A DNA stretch of 62,679 bases, filler included, from Rhabdomonas costata (taxonomy: Eukaryota), in NCBI GenBank assembly GCA_019059605.1. It is 35 parts of 35 records of this genome, joined end to end, with 100 filler letters (N's around TTAATTAATTAA, not from the genome) between each part and the next. Parts side by side here need not be neighbours in the genome. Positions count along the whole stretch, not along the records: positions 52,043 to 53,736 come from JAHMHO010010550.1; 34 more parts are not named here. One strand, given 5' to 3'. Positions 1,789 to 54,113 of this stretch are shown in pieces (the first letter of the stretch is position 1; each line of letters opens with the position of its first letter). The notes under the pieces are model-generated. The model was given only the letters and a program-made list of their open reading frames with translations. It searched no databases and was not told the DNA's origin. The translations under genes were made by a program, and so were the position numbers.

Positions 1789-3588
1789 GGTGTTTGGTGC
1801 TGTCCGCGCGGGGCTTCGCTGCGGAACCTGGTGGCAATGGATAAGGCTGGCTTAAGTGTGTGGCGCGGGTGAGGCGACTCCCAAGGGTTCCCTTTCCCCG
1901 CACTTTCTTCTCTTCGGGACCAGTAGAAGTTGGGCTTTCCTTCCTTTCAGTTCTTTTTTGGCCGCCGGCCTCTTGTTTTATTTTTGGATTGTTTGTTCTC
2001 TCCTCTTGTGGCTCCGTGTGCACCTTTTCTTGTGTTCTCGAGACCTCAAACCTGCGGTGTTTTTTCTACTACCGCTACATTCGTTTGTGCAAGGTTGTAT
2101 TTTTAGATTTGATTTTGAGTTATTCATGGTGCCCTAGCTTGGAAAACTTCTGGCTGTAATTTTCACACCGTGTGTTGGAGGCCGCTGGAGTTGTGCTCTC
2201 TCTCGGTTGTGGTTACAGGAAGGACTCAGTGTTGGCGTGGACTCACAGAAACTTGTATTTTTGCGGTTTTTTTTGTGTGCGTGCTCCAAAAAAAACCTGT
2301 GAAAAAGCTTTGGGTGCATTTGATTCTCTTTGCCGCACTCATTGAAATCTCGGTGCAGTCACTGTGCTTGCTGCGCGCCCTTTTCTGGAAAATCCCACAT
2401 ACATACATACATACAGTTGTGGCGCCCTTCACCCGCACCCTTTCTCTTTCCTCGGGAAAGATGTGTCTCCCACGGTGTCTGTATGTTTGTGCCTTTCAAG
2501 CTCCCTGCTGAACAAAATCAGGGCAAATCTTGTGTGCTGAGGCAACTGACGTCCCCAATTTTCATTGGGGAAGTTCTGGTTGGTGGGGCCCAAAGTTGCC
2601 TTCACCTTTATGTACTATTGCTGGGCGAGACCAGCATGTTAGACCGTGTATATGCACCCGAGCCGACTTCGATGTCTCCGAGCAGCTGCATCAGTCGTCA
2701 CCTTTCATACCCAACTCATTGTGTGCCTTTTTTTCACACCCCATTCCTGTGTCCTGTGTCCCTTCCTTTACACTCACTATTGCCCACTCGCTCACATCCT
2801 TATGCCCCCCTTTCAGCTCTCCGGCCGTGTAACCACTCCGAGGATTGCTTTTGTGGTGGGTTTGCCTGCTGTTTGGTATGGAGTGGGTTTTGCACGGTTA
2901 GCGTAATCCAAAACCTCGTGCCAAGACTCGGCCCGCACCATTCATCGACTAAAAAGCTCATTACGCGGTTCCCCCTAGTGTTCCACCCTTGGAATGTCAA
3001 GGAAGAACCCCCAGCGCTTAAATTCGTGATTATCGAGCAAGGTTTGGAGCTGAATGCATGCAGAGTTGAGCTCATGATGAACAAACGGTAACTATTACGT
3101 TTTGGAAGCCACAGTTTCGGAACTCCGACGCATCCGGGAAGCTTGCGTTGAGTGAGAAGCCTAGGTTTGTATAGTTGTGTCTCAGTTCCATTCGTTCTTG
3201 TCCTAAAACACGAGCGTTTGCGACCGCTACTCAAATAGAGCGAAAAACTTTGCAGTACCTTCCGTATTGGACTTGAGACGTCTCTGGAGGGCCATGTCAC
3301 TCACCTTCTGTGTCGGGGTCGAACTTTTGGGGATGGGAGTGCTCAGTTAACGCTCAAACAGGCTGAGGGCCAAGTTGTCAATCGACAAGCGTCCCATTTC
3401 CTTTCATCCGAACGTGTTTCGGCTTATTAACTTCTGCTAACCTACTGGTGGTATTAGGCCGCGGCACAGGCTTTCCAGAAAAAANNNNNNNNNNNNNNNN
3501 NNNNNNNNNNNNNNNNNNNNNNNNNNNNTTAATTAATTAANNNNNNNNNNNNNNNNNNNNNNNNNNNNNNNNNNNNNNNNNNNNGTTG

Positions 3589-3696
3589 TTTTTTGTAGTG
3601 ATCCATTAAATTACCGAGTTGCCTTCATGGATTATGATAGTTACAATTAGACATTTCATGAGACATTTCGGTAATTTAATGGATCACTACAAAAAA
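3589..3696. repeat. Contig-terminal inverted repeat (29-bp arms 3589-3617 / 3668-3696)
   Basis: TTTTTTGTAGTGATCCATTAAATTACCGA and its exact reverse complement; starts 4 nt from the contig start. Confidence 0.95.
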
Positions 3697-5764
3697 AGCT
3701 AAGCAACATCAACCAGTGCCTTATTTAGTAAAATACCGGGGGAAACAGAGATACAGAACAAGCAGACACAGCACAGGAACACAAACCCAACCTACACACA
3801 GACATCTTTGCGCAGGGGTAAAAAGGCAAAAAAAAACACAGGGCCCAATTGAGGATGGATAGAAAGAGGTAACGAGGGAAATGTGAGGTGCGCAGGTGTT
3901 TGGCCATGTCCTCCCCCTCTGCGTTTGTTGAGTGACTGATATTCCCTGCCGCCGGAGGCTCGGTGCACATTGGGTGGTGGTGTGGTGGGTGGCCTGTGGC
4001 CCCTCGGGTTGTGGGCAGGGGTGAGCTGTTTCCGGTTCCGCCGTCCAGCCGCAGGATGAGCGGGAACCGTGAACATCTCCCCCAGCTTTCTTTCCGGTTT
4101 GGGCAGAGAGGGAGAGCCTCATGGGCTTTTTTCACACGACACAGTACACACAACACAGCGGTAGGTACACAGTGTGCAGTATTCGGAACCTTATCATTTC
4201 TTTGCAAGCGCGAGGAACGGACAGAGGGATGGTTCTTTTGCAAAAAAAAAGAACAGGGGGATGCTCCTTCATGGATGTTCTTCAAATACGAAATCTTCGG
4301 AGGAATCATGGGATTGCATAAAACAGACTGGGAGAGGGCAACCCTTCAGACCTGTTCATAACGTAAGCCCCAACCACCAGCAGCAAAAATCCAGCGGCAC
4401 ATGGCAGTGCGATGGGCAAGATATTCATCGTGGAGTTTACTGTAGAGACCCCCCCCAGAAAACAATAAAAGCGCACGCAAAACCGAAACAACCAAATGCA
4501 ACCAAATAACGAGACAACCATTGCTCAGCCGACTCATCCTTCCAACGGATAGGCAAGCCCCAGTGTTCAAAGCTGATACGAGGCACCATTTTACAGACCT
4601 TTCTCCGGGTTTGCCACATTGTCCGTGCCTCCGACTGATTAGAGGTCGTGCAAAGGAAAAGCGGTCTTTTTCTGTGGTGGTTGTTCTTTCGTCTCACTCA
4701 AGGGTGCAGGCGAGGCGAGAAAAAAGAACAAAAGGGAACGCCATTAGTGAAACAAACCTGCACATGACAGAAATGAAAGAAAGCGTAACTTGCGTGCGTT
4801 TTCTGTTCAATACGCTGAGGCAAACAACTACTCTCGGTCACCGCCTCAAGGCAACAGCTTCTACTACTCGTCGGGGTGTGCAAAAACCATTGCCACGTCA
4901 GCTACATGAGAGCAACTGAAAGTAAGCGGGATTTTGAGACCCACACAGCGCAAAGCCAACCGCACACATTAAAGGACAAATTTACAACCGCAGCAGCGAA
5001 AGGAAAGGTGCAGCGACCTGACCCATTCTTCCGGGATCCTTTCGGGTGTACAAAATATAAAAGCCCGTCCGGTGCTTCAAAAATAGTGATCAAGTTCCCT
5101 GAGACCGGTTCCTCCCATTTGATTGTCGAAACATACCACCGTGTTCAGAAGCAACTCTATACAAAAACTAAAGGCAGAGTGACGGTCACAGACGGACACA
5201 GACATGCCTTGCGCAGGGTCGGGGTCATAGCGCTGCTTCAGAGTGCACACAACAGGCTTCGAGCCGTCCGTGTCCACACANNNNNNNNNNNNNNNNNNNN
5301 NNNNNNNNNNNNNNNNNNNNNNNNTTAATTAATTAANNNNNNNNNNNNNNNNNNNNNNNNNNNNNNNNNNNNNNNNNNNNTGGTTTGGTATAACCCCTGA
5401 AAGGGAACTATGAAGAACATAGAGGCAGCAGAGGGAAGAGAGCGCGTGGATCAGTGCTCATTAAAGGCGTTTTGATGAACACACTGGACACAGAATTGCT
5501 ATACAGAATAAACCACATCGCCTTTTGGTCTAAACTTTCTTCGTTTGTGTGGTTATTATTTGCATTATTTGCATTATTGAGAAGTAGGCATACACTTTCC
5601 CCAATTAGCAGCACACTCATAGCACGATCTTGATAAATCGGGCCTTTCTGCTCTGCTGCAGCTCAGGCGACTACTCGAGGAAACAGAAAAGACAAGCACA
5701 CACAACACATACCGCTAAGCACCCCGTGAAAAGAGAAAGAAGAGGAGGTAAGGGGGTGTCCCAC

Positions 5765-12564: not shown

Positions 12565-14061
12565 CCAGCTCCACCCCAATCGTCACCCGCTTCACCTGCT
12601 CCACGCTCAGCCCCGCGCCCTTCACCCCGATCAGCTGGTTCGCCAGCGGCCGCAGCTCCAGAAGGTCCAGCACTAGCCTCACGATGTCCTCCTTGGCCTC
12701 GTCGGAAACGGTGCTGTTTAGAGGAGTCGACGAATCTCACCGCGGCGCGCCAACCCAAGAATGTTGCTCGTCAAGTAAATCGCCCAACGCTTCTGGGACT
12801 AAGCTGAAGCAACCTCGCGCTGCTGACTGTGTGTGGTGCTTTATCTGCATTGCAGGTGTTTCTTTCTCATCTCTGAGGCAGTCCGAGGGCCGAGCTGAGA
12901 TGGTGGTGGTGAAATTGAAAGTCACAGCGAGATCAACAAATTCAGCAAATCGCGTATGTGTGAAGTGATGACAGACGATAAGACGATGAAAGCGCCCGCT
13001 GTTTCACGATGGCGGCGCTTCCGTCCACGACACTTCCCGTTTTCTACCCCCCCCCCTCGCGTAACACAGAAGGGGGTCTCAGTGATGAAAACAACCCTCT
13101 GCTCCCCATCTCATCAATCGTCATGACTCGGACCCCCTTTCTCCACCACTACACCAATAACTCTCCAGACTTTTACTGCGCGGCTGTTTTACCTACAGCA
13201 GCATGGAAACAGCAGAGCGTCAGTGGAGCAGACCTGGAGAGTCTCAGTCGTGCAGAGAACCGCAGGGCCTCCAGCACCGTCGCCGCAGGAGTGTGCAAGT
13301 CCAGCTGCTCGACATAGCTTTTGGTTTTAAGGTGTGAGCGCAGACGTAGGGAGCCGTCATAGCTCATGTGCGAGTGTAGCGTGCGCACAGGCCCTGCATC
13401 CATCCAGGACACTCACAAACTCTCCTCCGCAAAGGGGCCACTTGTATTTTTTGGGGTGGTGCATTCAGAGGTAGTTGACGGAGCTAACCCAACCCCCGCG
13501 CACTATAAACAACCTTCACAAAATGTGTCTGATTCCGACGTTTAGTGGCGCAAAACGTCCCTGAAACGTCCCAACCCATCCGCCGGCTCCGGCCACGCAA
13601 CAGACTGGCCTCCGCACCACCTCAAATAATTGAATCCCTTTGTACTGCGATGTCTTGGGAATCGCCCTTGCGTTCCCACCTACACGTTCAGCAATGCACA
13701 ACGTTTAACACCCCCCCTCCCCAATACAGTTGTTCCCAAATCAGGACTAGAACTGCCCGCTGCCGTCCGCCGCGAGGACTGAATTTAGCGCAGCGGGATG
13801 AGGATTTTCATTGGGGGAGGGGATAAACTCAGCAGACCCAGAGATCCGGCCAAACTCCACCGGGCTCATCGTTCGCCCGTTCAGTAGAATGTCCCCAGTG
13901 ATCTTCCCCGTGGTCTTCCGCCCGCCCAACACGTCCAGCAGGGTGGTCTTGCCTGCGCCGCTGCTCCCCATTAGGGCGGTGACCGTGCCGGGCTTGGCGA
14001 AGCCGCTAACCTCGTTGAGCAAGGTTAGGTTGTAACGCCCACTTTCTCCAGGAAGGTCAAC
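12565..14061 (-). CDS. PDR-type ABCG transporter, second nucleotide-binding domain (exons 14061-13838, 13317-13234, 12713-12565)
   Basis: [32 protein letters not shown] (Walker A), GYVEQLDLH...[13 protein letters not shown] and [16 protein letters not shown]; joins phase-consistent. Confidence 0.95.
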
Positions 14062-14127
14062 CTTCAAGAGGGGAATTTACGCATACGTCACCTAAGAATG
14101 CTACCCTATGAGGTGTTCGAAATGTGC

Positions 14128-14252
14128 TTCACCCTGGCCCCCTATCCCTTAACGGCTCTTTTTAATTTACGAGGGTCCAGTCATCCTGACTCAGGACGAC
14201 TGGACCCTCGTAAATTAAAAAGAGCCGTTAAGGGATAGGGGGCCAGGGTGAA
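14128..14252. repeat. Near-perfect 125-bp palindrome at contig end
   Basis: 62-bp arms with one mismatch, centred on 14190, followed only by CCACAAAA before the spacer. Confidence 0.95.
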
Positions 14253-15197
14253 CCACAAAANNNNNNNNNNNNNNNNNNNNNNNNNNNNNNNNNNNNNNNN
14301 NNNNTTAATTAATTAANNNNNNNNNNNNNNNNNNNNNNNNNNNNNNNNNNNNNNNNNNNNGACGCGACTAAGCGGCGTTTCTAATGCAAGCGAACCACCC
14401 CATTGTAAGTATTCATATCAAACGAGCGAGCTGGTAGGACGGTTGACCACAGCTACCTCCGTTGAGCTTTCTAAATCCTCTGCTGCTTCACAAGCCAAAT
14501 GTCAGGACACGAGCACATCAAAGCAAGTGCAGCAAATTCCAGAAGCCCCCTCTCCACGTGAGTCCGCACACGTTCGATTGGGGTGAGAGGGCGCGTCCCC
14601 GTCTCGGCTCCAAAGCAAATTGTGGGGGGTTTAAAAAGAAAATCGAAAAAGAAGGGGAGGGAAAGCAACGGCTCTGCAGCATGAAGGGTTCGAAACAACA
14701 CCTGCTCATCAAATCGAGAACTCTCTGGTTGGAAAGGAAAACCACACAGCTACGGCATATACTGTGAAGCGCAACGGCACAGTGACTGAAGGAAAGAATC
14801 TGCGCAGATTCCCGTAGTACCGGAGTTGTGTATGTGTGTGCGTGTTTGTGGATGGAGATCATTCGGAAGCGTACAAGTATTCACAGAAGCTAAACACGTC
14901 GTGAAGAATGATGCAACAAAGGGAATGGGAGGCAGAAACAGAAATGAAAATAAAACGAAGGAAAGCATGTGGTTTGTGTTTTCGAGGGAAATGGGGAACT
15001 CAACTGCACAGCAGAGAGTGCATCCAGGTCTATGTGGGCCCCTCGGGACTGGGCATGGGCGCCCAACACGCGCACAGCCATCTGACCGCCTGCGCCGCCA
15101 TGTCAGTGCGAGAGAAGAGTTTGGAGAATGCACGTGAGCACGGATCCAAGTTAGGGAAATGCCGTGTCTCTCTCTCTGTGTGTAGGAGTGTGTAGAA

Positions 15198-19134: not shown

Positions 19135-19866
19135 GGTGCACAAAAGGGTTAGCGTGGGACTTTTGCGTTGCATATTGGGGGGGGGTCGAGGGGCATGGTT
19201 GAGCGAACTTACTTCCTATTTCTGAACAGCTCAGCGACTGCGCTGTTGCAAGCCAATGACTCAGGAGGAGTTGCTGTGGCTTGCTTCTGGAAGGTGTTCT
19301 CGCTTTTCCCAAAGTACAGGACACCTTCCACTGACTGATATATCTCCGCGTGGGCATCATATCCTTGTCACTGGATGGGGTGTTGGACGCAGGGGGGACA
19401 CCAGGCGCGGAGTCCCTTGCTCTTCTCGGCGGTCTGGTCTCCTTCCCTGTTCATGTCGGAGAAGACGCTGGCGACTTGCCGAACAACAAAGAGCACCAGT
19501 TGCAGGCTTGTCCTGTCAGTCGTTGACTCATCACTGCCACCCACTCAAAAACCCACAGCCTCGGTTTTCCGTGACACGACCATCGCACATGCATTGTCCT
19601 CGCCAGGTAATCCAAAGCGCGATGCACAACAGACGAGAGTTTGGGCGNNNNNNNNNNNNNNNNNNNNNNNNNNNNNNNNNNNNNNNNNNNNTTAATTAAT
19701 TAANNNNNNNNNNNNNNNNNNNNNNNNNNNNNNNNNNNNNNNNNNNNTGGTGTGTGTGCCTTCTCTTTTCAGTCGTGTTGCACCCTTTTCTTCCATTTCC
19801 TTCCCACAAAAATTTTCTTGCCTTTTTTTCTTCTTTTTGAATGAAGAATGTGTGATCCTTTGCCAG

Positions 19867-21321
19867 AAGCCTCGGGATGATGCGAATATCAAGTACCCAA
19901 CGGCCAGGTTGCGTGTGTCTCCTCGGACCTTGCCCGCCTCTGTTCTAGCTGGCATGTGTGAATACGAACCCCAGTACAATCCGAAGGCTGTCGCTCGAGA
20001 TGATCGTCTCAGGTTTGACGTAGTCTCTGGTATTTCTCCCGCAACGATCTCCCGCAACCTCCAGTCGTTGGTTGACTTGAAGCTCAAAAATTTTGGAGCT
20101 GGGTCGACTGCCGACACAACTCCAGAATATTTGAAGGAGCTGGAGTTGGGCCGCGACCGAACTCGCGTTTGCTTGGCTTTTGTCCTTTTTGGATGGTTTT
20201 GCAGCTTTGGGTTGCACCCGGAGCATCCTTGCTTCCAGCAGTGGATTTCTCAGCTCGAAGACAGCGCAAAAGAAAAAGGCGTGGCAATTGGCAACGATAC
20301 CTTCAAAAAGAGAATTGCTTTTCTTTGGGACGAACTACACCGCTTTGACCAGGAAGAGCGCCTATACGGGGTCTGCCTGCATCCCCTTCCCACTTTCTAC
20401 GACGTTCGTGTACAACAGGAGCGGTATTGTTATCGACTGTTTGGCGCCACTGTGGAAGAAGCGCGATACACTTTGCAATTATTTGATAGCTGTGTTTTCT
20501 CCTGTGGTGCGGAGGGAGCTTGGATAAAGCTTCGTCCCGCCCCTGAGCTGCTCTTCTGCAACCCATCGGCCTATGACGAGCTTTCACGCAATGTCGGCGC
20601 CACTATTGGAGTGGCATTTTGCGACCATCTCAAATCCCTAAAGGAGGCATTGTTGATGGACTCTCTGGAGAATCTCCTCCATCCTTTTGTTGTTGCACTG
20701 ATGAAACTTGCTCCTGAAAGCCCGAAGCGTGCTACTGCTGCAATACACAGCTTTGCCAAAAAACTGGTGGCTGGATCCGCCCCTCATCAAGCTGCGACAC
20801 ATTTGGCCTTTTACCAAAGGATTGGAACCTCGAGTGGCATGGCGGTTTTTGTACAGGAAGTGATTCTCAAAGAATTCTGTGCATGTACCTTGGCCGTCTG
20901 CGAAAGTGCCGTCAGGGAGCTCGGGTGGCTTTCCGAAAAGGGATGGCTCCATCCTCCTATCACTTTCCCCGCTCAATTGGATTCTGTGAGAAAGGTTGCG
21001 GTTAAACAACGCGATGACTTCTCCCCCGTTACGAGAGAACGGCTGCAAACGTGGGTGCAACCCCTGGAGTTTAACAGTGGTACGGAAACCCCAAGCCTGC
21101 CGCAGGAGGAAATTATGAAACCGGTTCAGGATGGTTTGACAAGCGTGAGACCCGTCCCTGTGGTAAGGTTGTTTTCTCTCAGAAGTGTGGTTCAGAGCAG
21201 TCCAGTTCTTCCGGTGCAACAGACAGGAGTGGAAGTGGCTTCTGGATTTTCTGCTTCTGTACTTTCAGTTGGCAGCGTGGTAGACTGTGGCTCTCTTCTG
21301 CATCTACGTTGCGAGCAAGGT
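19867..21321 (+). CDS. Large uninterrupted exon of an unknown protein
   Basis: Stop-free for about 480 codons after a pyrimidine-rich tract and CAG at 19864-19866; no family recognised; 3' end confounded by a fold-back repeat. Confidence 0.7.
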
Positions 21322-21434
21322 TTCGGGGTTCTACGTGTTCGGCCTGGTAGAGAGTGCTCTTTGGTAGACCTTGCTCGCAACGTAGATGCAGAAGAGAGCC
21401 ACAGTCTACCACGCTGCCAACTGAAAGTACAGAA
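21255..21434. repeat. Contig-terminal inverted repeat (67-bp arms 21255-21321 / 21368-21434)
   Basis: Exact reverse-complement arms with a 46-nt spacer, followed by ACACAAAA and the spacer. Confidence 0.95.
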
Positions 21435-22283
21435 ACACAAAANNNNNNNNNNNNNNNNNNNNNNNNNNNNNNNNNNNNNNNNNNNNTTAATTAATTAANN
21501 NNNNNNNNNNNNNNNNNNNNNNNNNNNNNNNNNNNNNNNNNNTGTGGGGGGGCGGATCAGTTGCTTTGCTGGGGTGTTAGCCACGGTTCTTTGGCAGAAG
21601 TCCGGGTGCTGGGTAGAAAAGAGATTCACGATATTGTTCATTGTTCGATGAGAATCCATTATCGTTCGCTGTTTCTCTGTGTGTGTGTGCGCGCGCGCCG
21701 AATTCGATGGCTGCGCATAAATACCAGAGCTAATAGCTGTTACTCAGCGAATGCCCGGATGGGTTTGCGGAGTTTCTGAAAGGCTATCACCCAGGTGATC
21801 GACACAACTGCCCCTAAGTGAAATAAAAAAACAGGAAAATTTAGTAAAATGATAACTCAACACCGGACCCTAAGCCTACACCTCAGAGCTGTAGCACAGG
21901 CGCTTTCAGAACCTGTGATAACGGTGTGTAGTGCTCATTTCGGGCAGCTCCAGCCTCTGAAGCTGTTGGGCCTATCTCAGCATCTGCGCTTTGGCTTGCC
22001 GTTTCTGCCGTAGTCGAGTGCTGGTGGGCGGCTTAAGAAACGTTGGGGTTGGGTATCGAGGGCGCCTTTTGAAGAGACCTGTGGACATACAGCCGCACCC
22101 AGAAAGAGACAATCAGCTCAGGAAAGCGTTGTATGTAGTCTCCTGACTGATGGGCAAACCGTGTCACCGTTTTGGGGGTGGCTTTAGATTACTGCAGTGA
22201 CTGTTTGCGGGGGCAAGGAAGTGTGCTTTGGGTGGTGTGGTGGTTTGGGGGTCCGTGTGTGTGTGCGTGTGGGATTCCATCAG

Positions 22284-41087: not shown

Positions 41088-41310
41088 GTGTGCTGACTTT
41101 GGACTTTATTCTCGCTCCTCACCGTTGTCATCCGAAAATCTCTAAGCGATGCTGGAAACGCGAAAAACACGAAAAAGATGNNNNNNNNNNNNNNNNNNNN
41201 NNNNNNNNNNNNNNNNNNNNNNNNTTAATTAATTAANNNNNNNNNNNNNNNNNNNNNNNNNNNNNNNNNNNNNNNNNNNNTGTAGTGGTTTCTGTGCTTT
41301 CGGAAGCAAA

Positions 41311-42363
41311 ATGCAACCCTTGGCTTGCTCACCGCACGACCAGGTGAGCAAAGAAAAGCTGCACGACGACGGCGAGCACCTTTTGGTTGGCCAAAGCAGC
41401 GGCGATATCGTCCTTTGCCCGGACGAGATATTCTTTCAGCTTCACCGGTGGGAGCAGCCCGGCGACGTGCTGGTGATGGTGCACGGGTTGATGTCCAGCT
41501 CCCAGACTTTTGCTGGGGTGATACCGCTGTTTCCTCCGGAGCTGCGCATATTGCTCTATGACCAGCGGGGGCATGGTCAAACCCCAGAGAAGGGACTGGA
41601 GCTCTCGCCCGTTCAGCTTGCCAGGGACTTAGCTGGGCTCCTGGATTTCCTCGGGGTTGCCGCGGTGCACCTTTTAGGGCACTCCTTTGGCGCGGTCACG
41701 GCACTGGCCTTTGCGGAGCGCCACGCTTCCAGGGTGCTGTCTTTGACACTTGAGGATATGGGGGTTCGGCGGTGCCCCCAACCTCAGCTTCCCTTGGAGG
41801 TGATCCGCGCCGAGGCCCTTCTTGCCCAGCAGCTATACCGCCCTTTCTTTGTCTCCCGAGAGGAAGCGCAGAGTTACCTTACGCGGTTCTGCGGAAAGCC
41901 CCGCTTCGGGCGCGGCCGCAGTGACATCCTGGAGAATCCCGACGGGACTTTCTCGCTAAGCTTTAAGCCCCACGTCGCCATCATGTACCACCACCCCTGC
42001 CTCCGCTCCGACTTCTCTGAGGTTATCGAGGGCGAGGTCTTCCCCGTGCTGGTCTTGGTGGCCAGGTCCGAAGAGTGCTGTGTGCCCCCGGAGGAAGTGA
42101 AGTTTATTCGAAGCCGGTGCCCCAGTGCGGAGGTGGTGTTTGTAGAGGGGGCGAAGCACAGCATCCACAAGACTCATCCGGAGGAGTTTGTGAAGGCCGT
42201 TGTGCGGTTGATTTCCTGGGTAAGACCCTTGACATCGTCCTTTTGCGAGGTTGTGAGTTCAGAGGCACGAGTGGCAGACGCAACTCCCCAAGCTTCGGAG
42301 GGAGCTGCAGACGAAGGGTTTGACGTTTTTGACGTTCTTGCTTTTCTTGGGGAAGCACCTTGA
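41311..42363 (+). CDS. Alpha/beta-fold hydrolase (esterase/lipase-like), complete and intronless, 350 aa
   Basis: VMVHG oxyanion motif, YDQRGHG, nucleophile elbow GHSFG and C-terminal catalytic His region GAKHSIH. Confidence 0.92.
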   Translation: MQPLACSPHDQVSKEKLHDDGEHLLVGQSSGDIVLCPDEIFFQLHRWEQPGDVLVMVHGLMSSSQTFAGVIPLFPPELRILLYDQRGHGQTPEKGLELSPVQLARDLAGLLDFLGVAAVHLLGHSFGAVTALAFAERHASRVLSLTLEDMGVRRCPQPQLPLEVIRAEALLAQQLYRPFFVSREEAQSYLTRFCGKPRFGRGRSDILENPDGTFSLSFKPHVAIMYHHPCLRSDFSEVIEGEVFPVLVLVARSEECCVPPEEVKFIRSRCPSAEVVFVEGAKHSIHKTHPEEFVKAVVRLISWVRPLTSSFCEVVSSEARVADATPQASEGAADEGFDVFDVLAFLGEAP

Positions 42364-48799: not shown

Positions 48800-50148
48800 G
48801 TTTCATAACCCCAACATCACCGCTTTCGCGGAGCTCATAATGTCTGTCGATACGGTTGAGAGGCTATTGACTTTGATGATGAACGACCTGGCAGTGAACG
48901 TACGAACCCCCAGCCCCCCTTCTTGTTTGCCACAAGAAAACTGGCATTTACTTGTGTGCTCTTTTTGCTCTTCCACAGCAAAAGAGCGTGCTCTTCTCCG
49001 AGGGTACCAACCTTCTCATTTCTGTAATTGACTCTCTGGTTCGTCGAGAAGAGATGGCCCGCACCCTCAGCCAGGCATGCACCCCCTTCACGCTCCCCCC
49101 CGTGGGCGGGCCGGAGGGCTTGCGCGTGTCTGGGGGGGGGGGGTGCGAATTACTGAGCGAATGCGTTTGACGCCTGCACCCAGCAGACAAACAGGCCACA
49201 AGCGTGATCTGCCAACAGCAGCTTTCGCTCACTTGTACGCACACGCACTGGCTGTGGGTACGTGCTCAGGAAAGTGCCGAAAGCACCGCGGAGGTCACTG
49301 CCTCCTCCTCCCCTCCGCGAGATGCTGATGCCGAAGAACACCAAATCGACCGCACCATTGGTGCGATCCTCGCTCGCAGCGAGGAGTTGGTTGTGTTTTG
49401 CGTGACCCAGGGGTATGGCTGTTCCCTTTTTTCCATTTGATTTGGACCTTTCCGTTCTATCCTCGGTTCTTCTGCTTTGTTCTCCTCTCCAGCCATTGGA
49501 AAGCATTGAGCTGTCATGGACGACGCTCAGCCCTCCTTTGGGTCTATCCAGGCTGAAAACGGTGGAGCTTTTGTTGGTTCTCCTGAAAACCAAGAAGCGA
49601 CACGTCGAGGACACCTTGATTGCGTTGAATGTCTTGCCCACGTGTGTGGGATTAATGTTCACCTTTGACATGAACAACTTGCTTCACATTCTGGTCGACG
49701 AAATGGTGATCTCCGCCCTAGTCTCGGGAAACCCGGCGCTGGTGGCGTGCTTGTTTCAAGGCTGCAACCTGCTGGAGCGGATTCTCGACGCCGTCAGCGA
49801 CGACCGCCCCGCTCCTCAGGCAACCTCAGAGCCTCCGTCATCAATGGACTCGCCAGTGAAGGCGCCCGAGATGGAGCCGGAGTCCACCATTCAAGAGGCC
49901 CCTGACCAGTCTGGGCCAACAGCGGAGTCCTCTTCTCCTGTTGTCCCAGAGGGTGACTGTGGCATGGCCACCGCGTGCTCGGCTTCGGGCCACGAGAGCT
50001 CGGCCCCGCCAGAGGTGGCGGAGACGCCCTCGTGCGCAGAGTCTTCAGGGCCTTTAGCTGACACAGCGGCATTGACTGCCTTGAACGCCTCTAACCTCTC
50101 AGAGAGTAGCTCCGACGCACCCAGCCCCCCAACCCCACACCCAACACA
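48800..50148 (+). CDS. SAPS-domain protein (PP6/SIT4 regulatory subunit), partial
   Basis: SWTTLSPPLGLSRLKTVELL...LMFTFDMNNLLHILV matches the SAPS PxGxxRL and NNxLH motifs; upstream exons 48800-48899, 48979-49074 (GC donor), 49270-about 49412. Confidence 0.85.
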
Positions 50149-52045: not shown

Positions 52046-52196
52046 TTTGTGTGTACGCTTGGGTGTTTTCGGTGCACACGAAGGACCCATCCCCACTCGC
52101 ATCATCAAGTGTTTCAATTGAAACCACTGCTTCTACTGGTAAACGATTCAGCGCCGAGAATCATGTGCACCGAAAACACCCAAGCGTACACACAAA
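52046..52196. repeat. Contig-terminal inverted repeat (33-bp arms 52046-52078 / 52164-52196)
   Basis: Exact reverse-complement arms starting 3 nt from the contig start. Confidence 0.95.
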
Positions 52197-52383
52197 GAGC
52201 CACTCCATAATTTTAACCAGCTATTGCACTTGGCGCCCAGGACAAGCGATGCCCACATGCACACATTGTGGCCAATGAGGAGGGAGAAGGTTAGCACAGG
52301 CTGTATGAGAGTGCCAATAGCGGACACTCCGACACTTTGGCGCCAGCACAACAAATTGGTGTCGCCTGCGAAAAACAGCCCAC

Positions 52384-53476
52384 CGCACGGATTCATTGTG
52401 AGACAGAAGTCGTATCCCACTCGTGGATTGATCGCTTAGCAGTAGAGACTAGACTTTCCGAGGCGGTCCATTGCCACCCCAAAAGGCTTTATTGTGAGAG
52501 TTGAGACGGAGTTGAGACAGCCACCACATTCGGGAAGTCCCTTTCACAGATAATATGAAGGGACCATTCCAAACCCACCGAAGACTCAAGCAAAACTCAA
52601 GCAAGACTCAAGCAAAAATTTTGAAGGTAACGAAGGGTCTACATACGCTGGAAGAACCGTTCCATTCCCGTCCTGCGCCGCACATCGGCTGTTGTGGGGT
52701 TATCTACTGAAGTGTGCGCGGAGGACAGCTCCGCAGTGACTGTGCCACTGATGTCGTGCAGGAACAGCAACAACAGCTGGTCCATTTCCTGGGAGTGGGA
52801 GGGGGTGGGGAGAGAAATACGTACTCTATTTCAAGCCAAAATTCAACCTCAAAAAAAAAAGGAGCACATTCCACATCGCAGCTGGGCCCATTTCGCCATC
52901 CTCTCTTCTTCCACGCAGGCGCATGAAAACATTCCTGGCACAGTGGAAAATAGCGGATACTGCTCTGGACTCCGCTTTTGCAAAGTTTTCAAGCACTGCC
53001 ATAGTTCCTTCCTATCCAAAATAAAATGAATATCAGTCAGCAAGTGCCGGCTCAGTTTAACTCTCTGCAACCGCTGGGAACGATCGATAGAGATTGCGTT
53101 CGATTGTGAGGACTAACGATGCTGTGGTGGTGATAGTCGGACAGGTAATCCTATAGAATGTCGCTGAAGGCAATTTGCGAGCTACAATGGTCAGCAATTG
53201 ATTGAAAACAGTGCGAGGCAAACCGGACCAAGGGCGAAGATAAGAACCGTGGGGGCCCCAGCACACCGTGCTTGTGGGGCGCTGCACGACGTCGTAGATG
53301 TAGATGAAGTAGTGGTCACCATCCAGCGGCCCCAGCATATAGGGGTGCCCCTCGTCGGCGAAGATGCGCCGCAGCAGGCTGACCTCGGAGGCCATCGAAG
53401 TGCCCGCGGGAGAAGGGCGGTCCCACGGCAAGGTGTGGTTCTTGCGGCTGTACTGCAAAAACTCCACTTCCAGCCC
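52384..53476 (-). CDS. S-adenosylmethionine decarboxylase-family protein, divergent (exons 53476-53267, 52788-52647, 52434-52384)
   Basis: VEFLQYSRKNHTLPW...EVSLLRRIF..GHPYMLGPLDGDHYFIY...TADVRRRTGM...MNPCG: YSRKN, G..Y.LG and NPCG landmarks of eukaryotic AdoMetDC in the correct order; phases 0 and 1 consistent. Confidence 0.85.
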
Positions 53477-54113
53477 CTTGATACAAACAAAACAAGTACC
53501 CACTGACCACATTCGAGCCTCGACCAGGCCCCGCGACCGAGCCAAGTTTAACTCCCGTCTCCAAGTTCCAGATCCATACGCTAAATGGTGAACCTTTCCA
53601 TCCATACCATGCATATTGTCCCTCACTCCCATTCGTCACCAACACCTAGGCATAGTCTTGGAATCCCTGGACGTCCAGTGCACCCACGCCCGAATTTGGG
53701 GCGGGGGCGGGGGTACTTCCATGAATACAAAACACCNNNNNNNNNNNNNNNNNNNNNNNNNNNNNNNNNNNNNNNNNNNNTTAATTAATTAANNNNNNNN
53801 NNNNNNNNNNNNNNNNNNNNNNNNNNNNNNNNNNNNGGTTTTGGTGGTAGTCTGTATTGTGGGGTGTGCACGATGCATCATCTTCATTATGTTCTTTGGT
53901 TGCTGCCTTGAGTGGGTGGGGAAGGGGTGTCATCCCTTCAGATTAGGAAAGCTTGACGTTTGAGCATGGTATGAGTTTTGGGGTTCGTCAGCAGCCTTCA
54001 TGGCACATTTTCTGTCATCTTGGCTGCTGTCGAGTCGAAATGCACTTCTACGGTTGTGGTGGTTGTAGGGAATCTTTTTTCATTCGTCGTTCTTGTTTGT
54101 TGTTTCCTCGCAG

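Follow-up and report, generated by a model that had tools for sequence, protein, structure and literature searches.

A divergent S-adenosylmethionine decarboxylase-family gene of Rhabdomonas costata groups with active-type euglenid enzymes and may encode a catalytically compromised copy

Is an S-adenosylmethionine decarboxylase (AdoMetDC)-like gene of the heterotrophic euglenid Rhabdomonas costata a relative of prozyme, an ordinary decarboxylase, a decaying pseudogene, or a compromised copy that arose on its own? Prozyme is a catalytically dead AdoMetDC paralog that activates the enzyme approximately 1000-fold as a heterodimer, and it is the classic example of activation of an enzyme by a dead paralog of itself. 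The R. costata gene was found in a 62,679-base stretch of DNA (the window), which consists of 35 contigs of 1672–1696 bases each, apparently size-sorted and joined via N44-TTAATTAATTAA-N44 linkers; gene neighborhood across the linkers is therefore uninformative for the AdoMetDC finding. The fragment lies on a single 1.7-kb contig (52043–53736, minus strand), where three phase-consistent exons encode approximately 130 residues of the family. It is very probably an AdoMetDC-family gene that falls within the active-type AdoMetDCs, on their euglenid branch, and lies outside the kinetoplastid prozyme clade. As to its product, we favor, at a probability of roughly 40%, a translated, catalytically compromised AdoMetDC copy of independent euglenid origin; this is a prediction from sequence, and the decisive residues lie off the contig. 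The three exons cover about a third of the protein, presumably spanning roughly residues 105–227 in the human AdoMetDC numbering. The gene model is as follows.

53267–53476, minus strand: exon A, 70 codons, GLEVEF...RPTST; acceptor AAG after a T-rich tract, donor GTGTGC
53405–53419, minus strand: altered Q-x-x-P-H site, R-P-S-P-A in the fragment, with a single Gly inserted directly after it
52789–53266, minus strand: intron 1, 478 nt, GT...AG, GC content 0.49, no homology in any frame
52647–52788, minus strand: exon B, 47 codons plus one base, EMDQLLLLFLHDIS...TGMERFFQ, ending in phase 1
52420–52646, minus strand: intron 2, 227 nt, GTATGT...GAG, weak acceptor
52382–52419, minus strand: exon C, minimal extent, (L)GYDFCLTMNPCG; it completes the split codon and has 13 residues ending in M-N-P-C-G

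Exon A corresponds to the β6-h8 connector loop, helix h8, and strands β7-β8 of Trypanosoma brucei AdoMetDC and contains R-K-N, P-W, M-A-x-E, G-x-P, G-P-x-D-x-D-H-Y-F, and Y-D. It scored 33.6 bits (E = 3e-8) against Pfam SAM_decarbox (PF01536; curated cut-off 22.2), the one match among six open reading frame (ORF) pieces submitted, and in the PDB it matched T. brucei AdoMetDC (5tvf_B, 47.7 bits, E = 1.3e-11) and prozyme (5tvf_E, 42.8 bits). A search of 1.84 billion representatives with exon A returned 94 proteins at E ≤ 1e-3, the best of them 59% identical. Profiles were then built from the homologs fetched here, the euglenid-type profile from 12 sequences. When the 76 six-frame pieces of the contig were searched with the euglenid-type profile, the exon A piece scored 82.5 bits and exon B 26.8 bits (E = 8.5e-9), and the two are colinear on that profile (positions 118–184, then 185–234); exon B scored 5.7 bits against a broad eukaryotic profile and −1.6 bits against the prozyme profile. 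Exon B is preceded by a C-rich tract with a CAG acceptor and followed by a GTATGT donor, and it holds the Asp aligned with human D174 and T. brucei D189, along with a Met-to-Leu and a Phe-to-Leu replacement. Neither exon B alone nor exon C alone matched a solved structure in the PDB (0 matches each). The candidate exon C, too short to score by itself in the profile search, is assigned from its exact spacing to N-P-C-G and from the score gained on joining the exons: P-C-G follows the conserved Gly of exon B at precisely the spacing shared by the 134 active enzymes defined below, none of which has a gap in this stretch, and the joined exons scored 123.1 bits against the euglenid active profile, versus 83.9 for exon A alone and 23.7 for exon B alone. 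M-N-P-C-G is read at 52396–52382, and exon C extends to 52382 or beyond. Placing its acceptor 18 nt farther upstream would disrupt this gap-free spacing and was rejected for that reason, and an 18-nt GT...AG directly after P-C-G was rejected as an intron too short to accept.

The initial annotation had read three phase-consistent exons of the AdoMetDC fold, which was confirmed by Pfam and the PDB for exon A, the euglenid profile for exon B, and the spacing to N-P-C-G for exon C. The strings that it quoted are all present, namely KNHTLPWDRPSPAGTSMASE (53443–53384), LLLFLHDI, and MNPCG, and so is the retained N-P-C-G. It was also right about an intron-rich, non-trypanosomatid host: R. costata is an intron-bearing euglenozoan, and PMC8219788 describes it as relatively intron-rich, with conventional GT/AG introns and a few nonconventional ones. 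Separately, three overlapping copies of a 22-nt repeat, 11 nt apart and with a ACTCAAGCA core, lie within intron 2 (52571–52614).

Judged by profile scores, exon A alone cannot separate active from prozyme-like proteins (83.9 bits against the euglenid active, 62.9 against the kinetoplastid active, and 81.5 against the prozyme-like profile). The joined model, in comparison, scored 123.1 bits against the euglenid active profile, 116.5 against all euglenozoan active enzymes, 87.2 against kinetoplastid active enzymes, and 87.9 against the prozyme-like profile, which favors the euglenid active type over prozyme by 35 bits. When the 130-residue model was compared with the fetched proteins by BLASTP, the top matches were all active-type (38–45% identity, mostly end to end), and the prozyme-like proteins aligned only to its first 74–108 residues. 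We built a maximum likelihood tree (368 columns, LG+C20+F+G4, SH-aLRT support) from 66 rows, chosen from the fetched proteins and comprising the fragment, 12 euglenid-type, 9 kinetoplastid active, 24 prozyme-like, and 20 other eukaryotic sequences. The euglenozoan clade had a support of 100. The 24 prozyme-like rows came together in a single long-stemmed clade (100), whose sister group was the kinetoplastid active enzymes (97), and the fragment grouped with Dinema validum (P0124; 80) and P0122 (92), outside that pair and separated from it by branches with supports of 96 and 97; Entosiphon sulcatum (P0120) lay nearby. Forcing the fragment and the 24 prozyme-like rows into one clade was rejected by the approximately unbiased (AU) test (log-likelihood difference 22.35, p-AU = 0.0066); the grouping was taken from the earlier hypothesis, and the test was run after the free tree had been seen.

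These results bear on the possibility that the gene is orthologous to the trypanosomatid prozyme or branched early from the prozyme line, in which case the prozyme duplication would be older than the euglenid-kinetoplastid split. Exon A gives this explanation some footing, with 79.6 bits for prozyme versus 76.8 for active enzymes in one profile set (81.5 versus 83.9 in the second), as does the loss of the same Gln and His that are lost from all 24 prozyme-like rows. The tree position and the AU test contradict it, however; exon B and P-C-G have no prozyme counterpart (gaps in 22–23 of the 24 rows); and the fragment is 27–32% identical to the prozyme-like rows, which is below its identity to active enzymes. 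We consider such an origin very improbable. The initial annotation had proposed kinship with prozyme and held that grouping with active enzymes would count against it; the fragment groups with them, and that reading therefore fails. Nor did its three supposed prozyme marks (PW...MA.E, G.P..GP.D.DH, and D..R...E.D) hold up, as they occur equally in active T. brucei, euglenid, and kinetoplastid enzymes. In the PDB alignment, the active T. brucei alpha chain shows F-P-W-E-Q-K-G-P-H, S-M-A-E-E, and G-Q-P-F-I-F-G-P-I-D-S-D-H-Y-F, and among the 224 fetched proteins, P-W followed by G-P-x-D-x-D-H-Y-F is found in active euglenid, active kinetoplastid, and prozyme-like proteins alike. On this comparison, the motifs are marks of the euglenozoan lineage and not of prozyme.

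The prozyme clade itself looks much more diverse than its trypanosomatid examples, in line with the '+' entries for bodonids in Table S4 of PMC7052976. Environmental assemblies (Logan, ENA, and JGI) are the source of many deep-branching prozyme-like proteins (P0007, P0008, P0017, P0020, P0025, P0027, P0044, P0055, P0088, and others), and one prozyme-like protein, P0032, is filed in NCBI under a Flavobacteriaceae metagenome-assembled genome, presumably as a binning contaminant.

To describe the fragment residue by residue, we defined an active set of 134 of the 224 fetched proteins, all with an E-S-S-type cleavage motif, P-C-G-[YFW]-S, and H-x-T-P-E; fragments, prozyme-like proteins, five unrelated multi-stretch hits, P0115, and the Dinema sequence were left out. 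Over the fragment, 22 columns are conserved at 85% or more in this set, with P, C, and G fixed by the definition of the set. The fragment keeps 17 of them, including all 12 that the prozyme-like rows largely keep, and differs at 5, whereas the prozyme-like rows differ at 8–11. Among the active enzymes, 60 rows differ at none of the 22 columns, 45 at one, 15 at two, 11 at three, 2 at four, and 1 at five.

The replacements fall on residues that active enzymes hardly vary. The Gln of Q-x-x-P-H (134/134 active enzymes) is Arg in the fragment, and the His (133/134) is Ala; both are absent from 24/24 prozyme-like rows, so that this motif separates the groups, being kept by the active forms and missing from the prozyme-like forms and the fragment. 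In exon B, the Met of the strand motif (LLLFLHDI in the fragment), kept by 133 of the 134 enzymes (the remaining row is a gap), is replaced by Leu, and a separate Phe present in 124/134 is likewise Leu. The aromatic residue before x-P-C-G (Phe in 129 and Trp in 5 of the 134) is Met. Two of these changes, the loss of Q-x-x-P-H and the altered strand motif, had been pointed out in the initial annotation and stand. In addition, the Gly insertion of the connector loop occupies a column that is a gap in 99% of active enzymes, two positions after R-K-N that are aromatic in 130/134 and 128/134 read His and Leu, and the polar position matching human E178 reads Leu. P-C-G itself is kept, a feature that is a gap in 23/24 prozyme-like rows. 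We take the human equivalents of the altered Gln, His, Met, and Phe to be Q123, H127, M181, and F192, a numbering checked only against alignment offsets. The altered Gln and His correspond to T. brucei Q139 and H143, as mapped from the exon A PDB alignment and the residue numbers given in PMC5201418.

The structural background given in PMC5201418 indicates what these positions do. The T. brucei β6-h8 connector spans residues 130–145, of which Q139-P142 are disordered in the inactive monomer, and upon heterodimerization it reorders to form a pocket for the N-terminal helix. W137 and M146 line this pocket, and a W137A/M146A mutant is poorly activated; R154 and D169 make contacts across the dimer interface; H172 and N132 belong to the putrescine site of the pocket, and the one in the β-sheet includes D189 (human D174). 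The fragment keeps the equivalents of all seven residues (W137, M146, R154, D169, H172, N132, and D189). The same source assigns ligand stacking to human F223 and T. brucei Y243, the position occupied in the fragment by the Met before N-P-C-G. Four near-invariant residues are thus replaced, one of them a substrate contact, and catalysis would therefore be impaired or altered.

Whether the gene is instead a pseudogene, that is, a decaying and untranslated copy of a euglenid AdoMetDC gene, depends in part on the remainder of the contig, which holds three further features.

52148–52381, minus strand: in-frame continuation after exon C, GLFFAGDTNLLCWRQ..., 78 codons to a stop, GC content at third codon positions (GC3) 0.59
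53477–53736, minus strand: upstream intron sequence, no profile match
52046–52081 and 52161–52196 (span 52046–52196): fold-back inverted repeat at the contig end, 36-nt arms, 97% complementary, 79 nt apart

In favor of decay, invariant residues are replaced, the exon C acceptor is weak, no protein of at least 124 residues in a 90%-cluster collection contains exon A, and homology ends abruptly after P-C-G, where the in-frame continuation is unrelated and gave no AdoMetDC profile match in any frame. The continuation is either intron or degenerate sequence; if it is an intron and the contig stops short of the next exon, the end of homology is explained equally well. Possible donors are G|GTGGGC or A|GTGTCG, with GT sites directly after P-C-G or 14 codons on. 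The next exon (Y-S-x-N, H-x-T-P-E) may well lie beyond the contig end, since the introns measure 227–478 nt and only about 185 reliable bases are left after P-C-G. The coding record argues against a pseudogene. The three exons carry 130 codons with no stop or frameshift despite approximately 60% divergence, and both length changes are in-frame insertions of a single codon. The GC3 values of exons A, B, and C are 0.87, 0.72, and 0.62, respectively, and a clearly coding ORF in the window has 0.69, so that exons A and B are at or above the coding value and far from the intron level (intron GC content 0.47–0.49). The losses also spare the fold-defining columns, unlike neutral decay. The intact frame, whole-codon insertions, high GC3, and kept fold and interface residues therefore point to a translated protein under selection, not a long-dead pseudogene, and we judge the pseudogene explanation to be distinctly unlikely.

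A Y-W-x-x-H in another frame (~52325–52345) was considered as a frameshifted H-x-T-P-E and rejected, as 3 of 9 residues match, there is no profile score, and the spacing is wrong. The fold-back at the contig end calls for its own caution. Terminal fold-backs of this kind are typical of amplification or assembly chimeras, and inverted repeats of at least 20 nt touching the terminal 60 bases occur in 5 of the 35 contigs of the window. The one on the AdoMetDC contig therefore looks like, and probably is, an assembly or amplification artifact, and the last ~150 bases of the contig are therefore unsuitable for locating the next exon. Contig ends in this assembly should be distrusted. The other contigs with terminal inverted repeats lie at 1–1688, 3585–5280, 12565–14260, and 19748–21442.

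A stronger competitor, though still a rather unlikely one in our view, is that the gene encodes this euglenid's ordinary active AdoMetDC, which would have evolved fast and become unusual at a small number of conserved positions, with its catalytic residues in exons off the contig. The fragment branches as a euglenid orthologue would, beside Dinema validum and an active-type environmental sequence, and its reading frames are intact, its exon phases correct, and its GC3 strong. It shares with the active-type enzymes of Euglena longa (P0002; EukProt EP00668 P024294), Dinema validum (P0124; EP00994 P006963), and Entosiphon sulcatum (P0120; EP01012 P003017) the family, the tree branch, Y-S-R-K-N, P-W, G-P-L-D-x-D-H-Y-F, the exon B segment, and P-C-G, with identical spacing and 37–41% identity over 128 shared columns. 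P-C-G and 17 of the 22 columns are kept, and one of the 134 active enzymes likewise misses five. The same comparison also exposes what an ordinary enzyme would have to explain. The E. longa and Entosiphon enzymes keep the Gln, His, Met, and stacking aromatic, but the fragment replaces all four; among the 134 active enzymes, the Gln is replaced in none, the stacking site is non-aromatic in none, the Met is replaced in none, and the His is replaced in one. The fragment further differs by two single-residue insertions, one of them in the connector loop. Its end branch measures 1.01 substitutions per site (128 columns, fixed topology), versus 0.62 and 0.48 in its neighbors and a euglenid-type median of 0.31, which makes it approximately 1.6–2 times as long as those of the neighbors. 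Its identity to the euglenid-type sequences is 33–41%, about 10 points below the 44–58% that these share among themselves. Finally, a published table scores two AdoMetDC-like entries for R. costata, as detailed below.

Several observations weigh against the reading that we favor, that of a translated but catalytically compromised copy, and some of them lend weight to an active enzyme. First, the full-length transcript product of Dinema, also a heterotrophic euglenid, has an intact L-S-E-S-S-L-F, and yet it reads E-P-Y-G-Y-S for P-C-G-Y-S and H-I-T-P-Q for H-x-T-P-E, both otherwise fixed. Fixed motifs thus drift within the group, and heterotrophic euglenid AdoMetDCs may be more permissive at motifs fixed elsewhere. 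Second, the lineage of the fragment has no sampled close relatives, which lengthens its branch, and the circular fixing of P, C, and G touches the column counts. Third, a canonical partner did not surface: no R. costata-prefixed protein, and hence no canonical second copy, appeared among the best 120 of 2416 matches to the E. longa enzyme (227–723 residues), and no second AdoMetDC fragment was found among 2406 six-frame pieces of the window, where exon A alone was significant and exon B had an E value of 0.76. Fourth, a search with exon A against proteins of 124–2000 residues in the 90%-cluster collection gave none at E ≤ 1e-3, which is weak evidence; the best relative of exon A is 59% identical, and no database protein of at least 124 residues contains it. 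Lastly, exons with the E-S-S cleavage site, the catalytic Cys (T-C-G-T-T; human C82, T. brucei C100), Y-S-x-N, and H-x-T-P-E were found neither on the contig nor elsewhere in the window, as the initial annotation had correctly stated for the cleavage site, which gave no profile match in either. With the cleavage site and the Cys, Ser, His, and Glu all outside the contig, activity is not readable from the fragment.

If the copy is compromised as we favor, its product would most likely be an AdoMetDC-like subunit that dimerizes, has weak or no decarboxylase activity, and has an origin separate from that of the kinetoplastid prozyme; its partner could be the cell's canonical AdoMetDC. A fuller version of this idea, an independently evolved euglenid AdoMetDC pseudoenzyme whose translated product pairs with the canonical enzyme and tunes polyamine synthesis, is conceivable but doubtful. 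Its expected signature, retention of the dimer interface, helix pocket, and putrescine-site residues together with loss of the substrate-stacking and connector-loop residues, may be what the fragment displays, and we put this forward only tentatively.

How such a copy would compare with prozyme is best seen against T. brucei prozyme (PDB 5TVF/5TVM, chain E). Both have lost the connector-loop Gln and His, both keep the same fold-defining residues and P-W/M-A-x-E, exon A scores equally against the prozyme profile, and by analogy the fragment may act as a dimer partner. Unlike prozyme, however, the fragment stands outside the prozyme clade and misses 5 conserved columns where prozymes miss 8–11, and it retains the stretch that leads from the D-x-x-L-N strand to P-C-G, which prozymes have lost or scrambled. 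Human AdoMetDC (PDB 1JEN, 3DZ2, and others) is more remote: it shares the fold family, and R-K-N, G-x-x-x-x-x-G, D-x-W/Y, and P-C-G align, but exon A matches it at only ~13–14 bits (E = 0.3–0.5), and it is without the euglenozoan P-W and D-H-Y-F marks of the fragment.

The published record gives a partial precedent. Prozyme is described in PMC5201418 as found only in trypanosomatids. Table S4 of PMC7052976 (Additional file 9), nevertheless, enters a '+' for R. costata both for AdoMetDC and for an 'S-adenosylmethionine decarboxylase regulator'. The regulator is '+' in trypanosomatids, four bodonids, one prokinetoplastid, Eutreptiella gymnastica, and R. costata, and '−' in Euglena gracilis and three diplonemids. 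These entries come without identifiers and without discussion in the main text, and the regulator '+' may reflect only a second BLAST hit, which counts with the objections above. A full-text literature search for prozyme and euglenids returned nothing on a euglenid prozyme, as far as the search results show, and none of five terms for AdoMetDC or spermidine synthase occurs in the six supplementary files of PMC8219788; that paper states that the published R. costata protein set was predicted from the transcriptome. A regulator-like second copy in R. costata thus exists in print only as an unannotated table entry, unexamined as a claim, and an independent origin of such a copy is absent from the literature as far as searched.

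The rest of the window is sparsely annotated. The linkers place stops in all six frames. A scan of the whole window against Rfam gave 0 families, and Pfam families were found in 2 of its 45 long ORFs: an intronless-looking alpha/beta hydrolase ORF (41284–42363, plus strand; Abhydrolase_1, E = 5e-22) and a fragment with a SAPS (SIT4 phosphatase-associated) domain (49406–50148, plus strand; E = 3e-14). With exon A, found in one of the six contig pieces, these were the only Pfam-positive ORFs of the scans. A 564-codon open frame at 19750–21441 (plus strand) has no Pfam family, and 38% of its length is 100% identical to R. costata RCo052714 (811 residues; EukProt EP00906_Rhabdomonas_costata_P037432); a portion of a larger lineage-specific gene therefore lies on this contig, and the match shows the host to be R. 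costata or a euglenid very near to it.

The fragment by itself cannot decide between a degenerate copy and an active enzyme, and either outcome would be informative. If the copy is an active enzyme, residues fixed in 134 diverse enzymes would be dispensable, which matters for enzymology and inhibitor design. If it is an independently degenerated euglenid copy, it would provide a natural second experiment on the origin of such regulators, in which the order of residue loss is visible: the connector-loop Gln and His and the stacking aromatic would have been lost before P-C-G and the middle segment. If such a copy also tuned the canonical enzyme, AdoMetDC regulation by a dead paralog would be convergent, having evolved repeatedly in Euglenozoa, and the control of polyamine synthesis by a dead paralog might recur in organisms that regulate their genes mostly post-transcriptionally.

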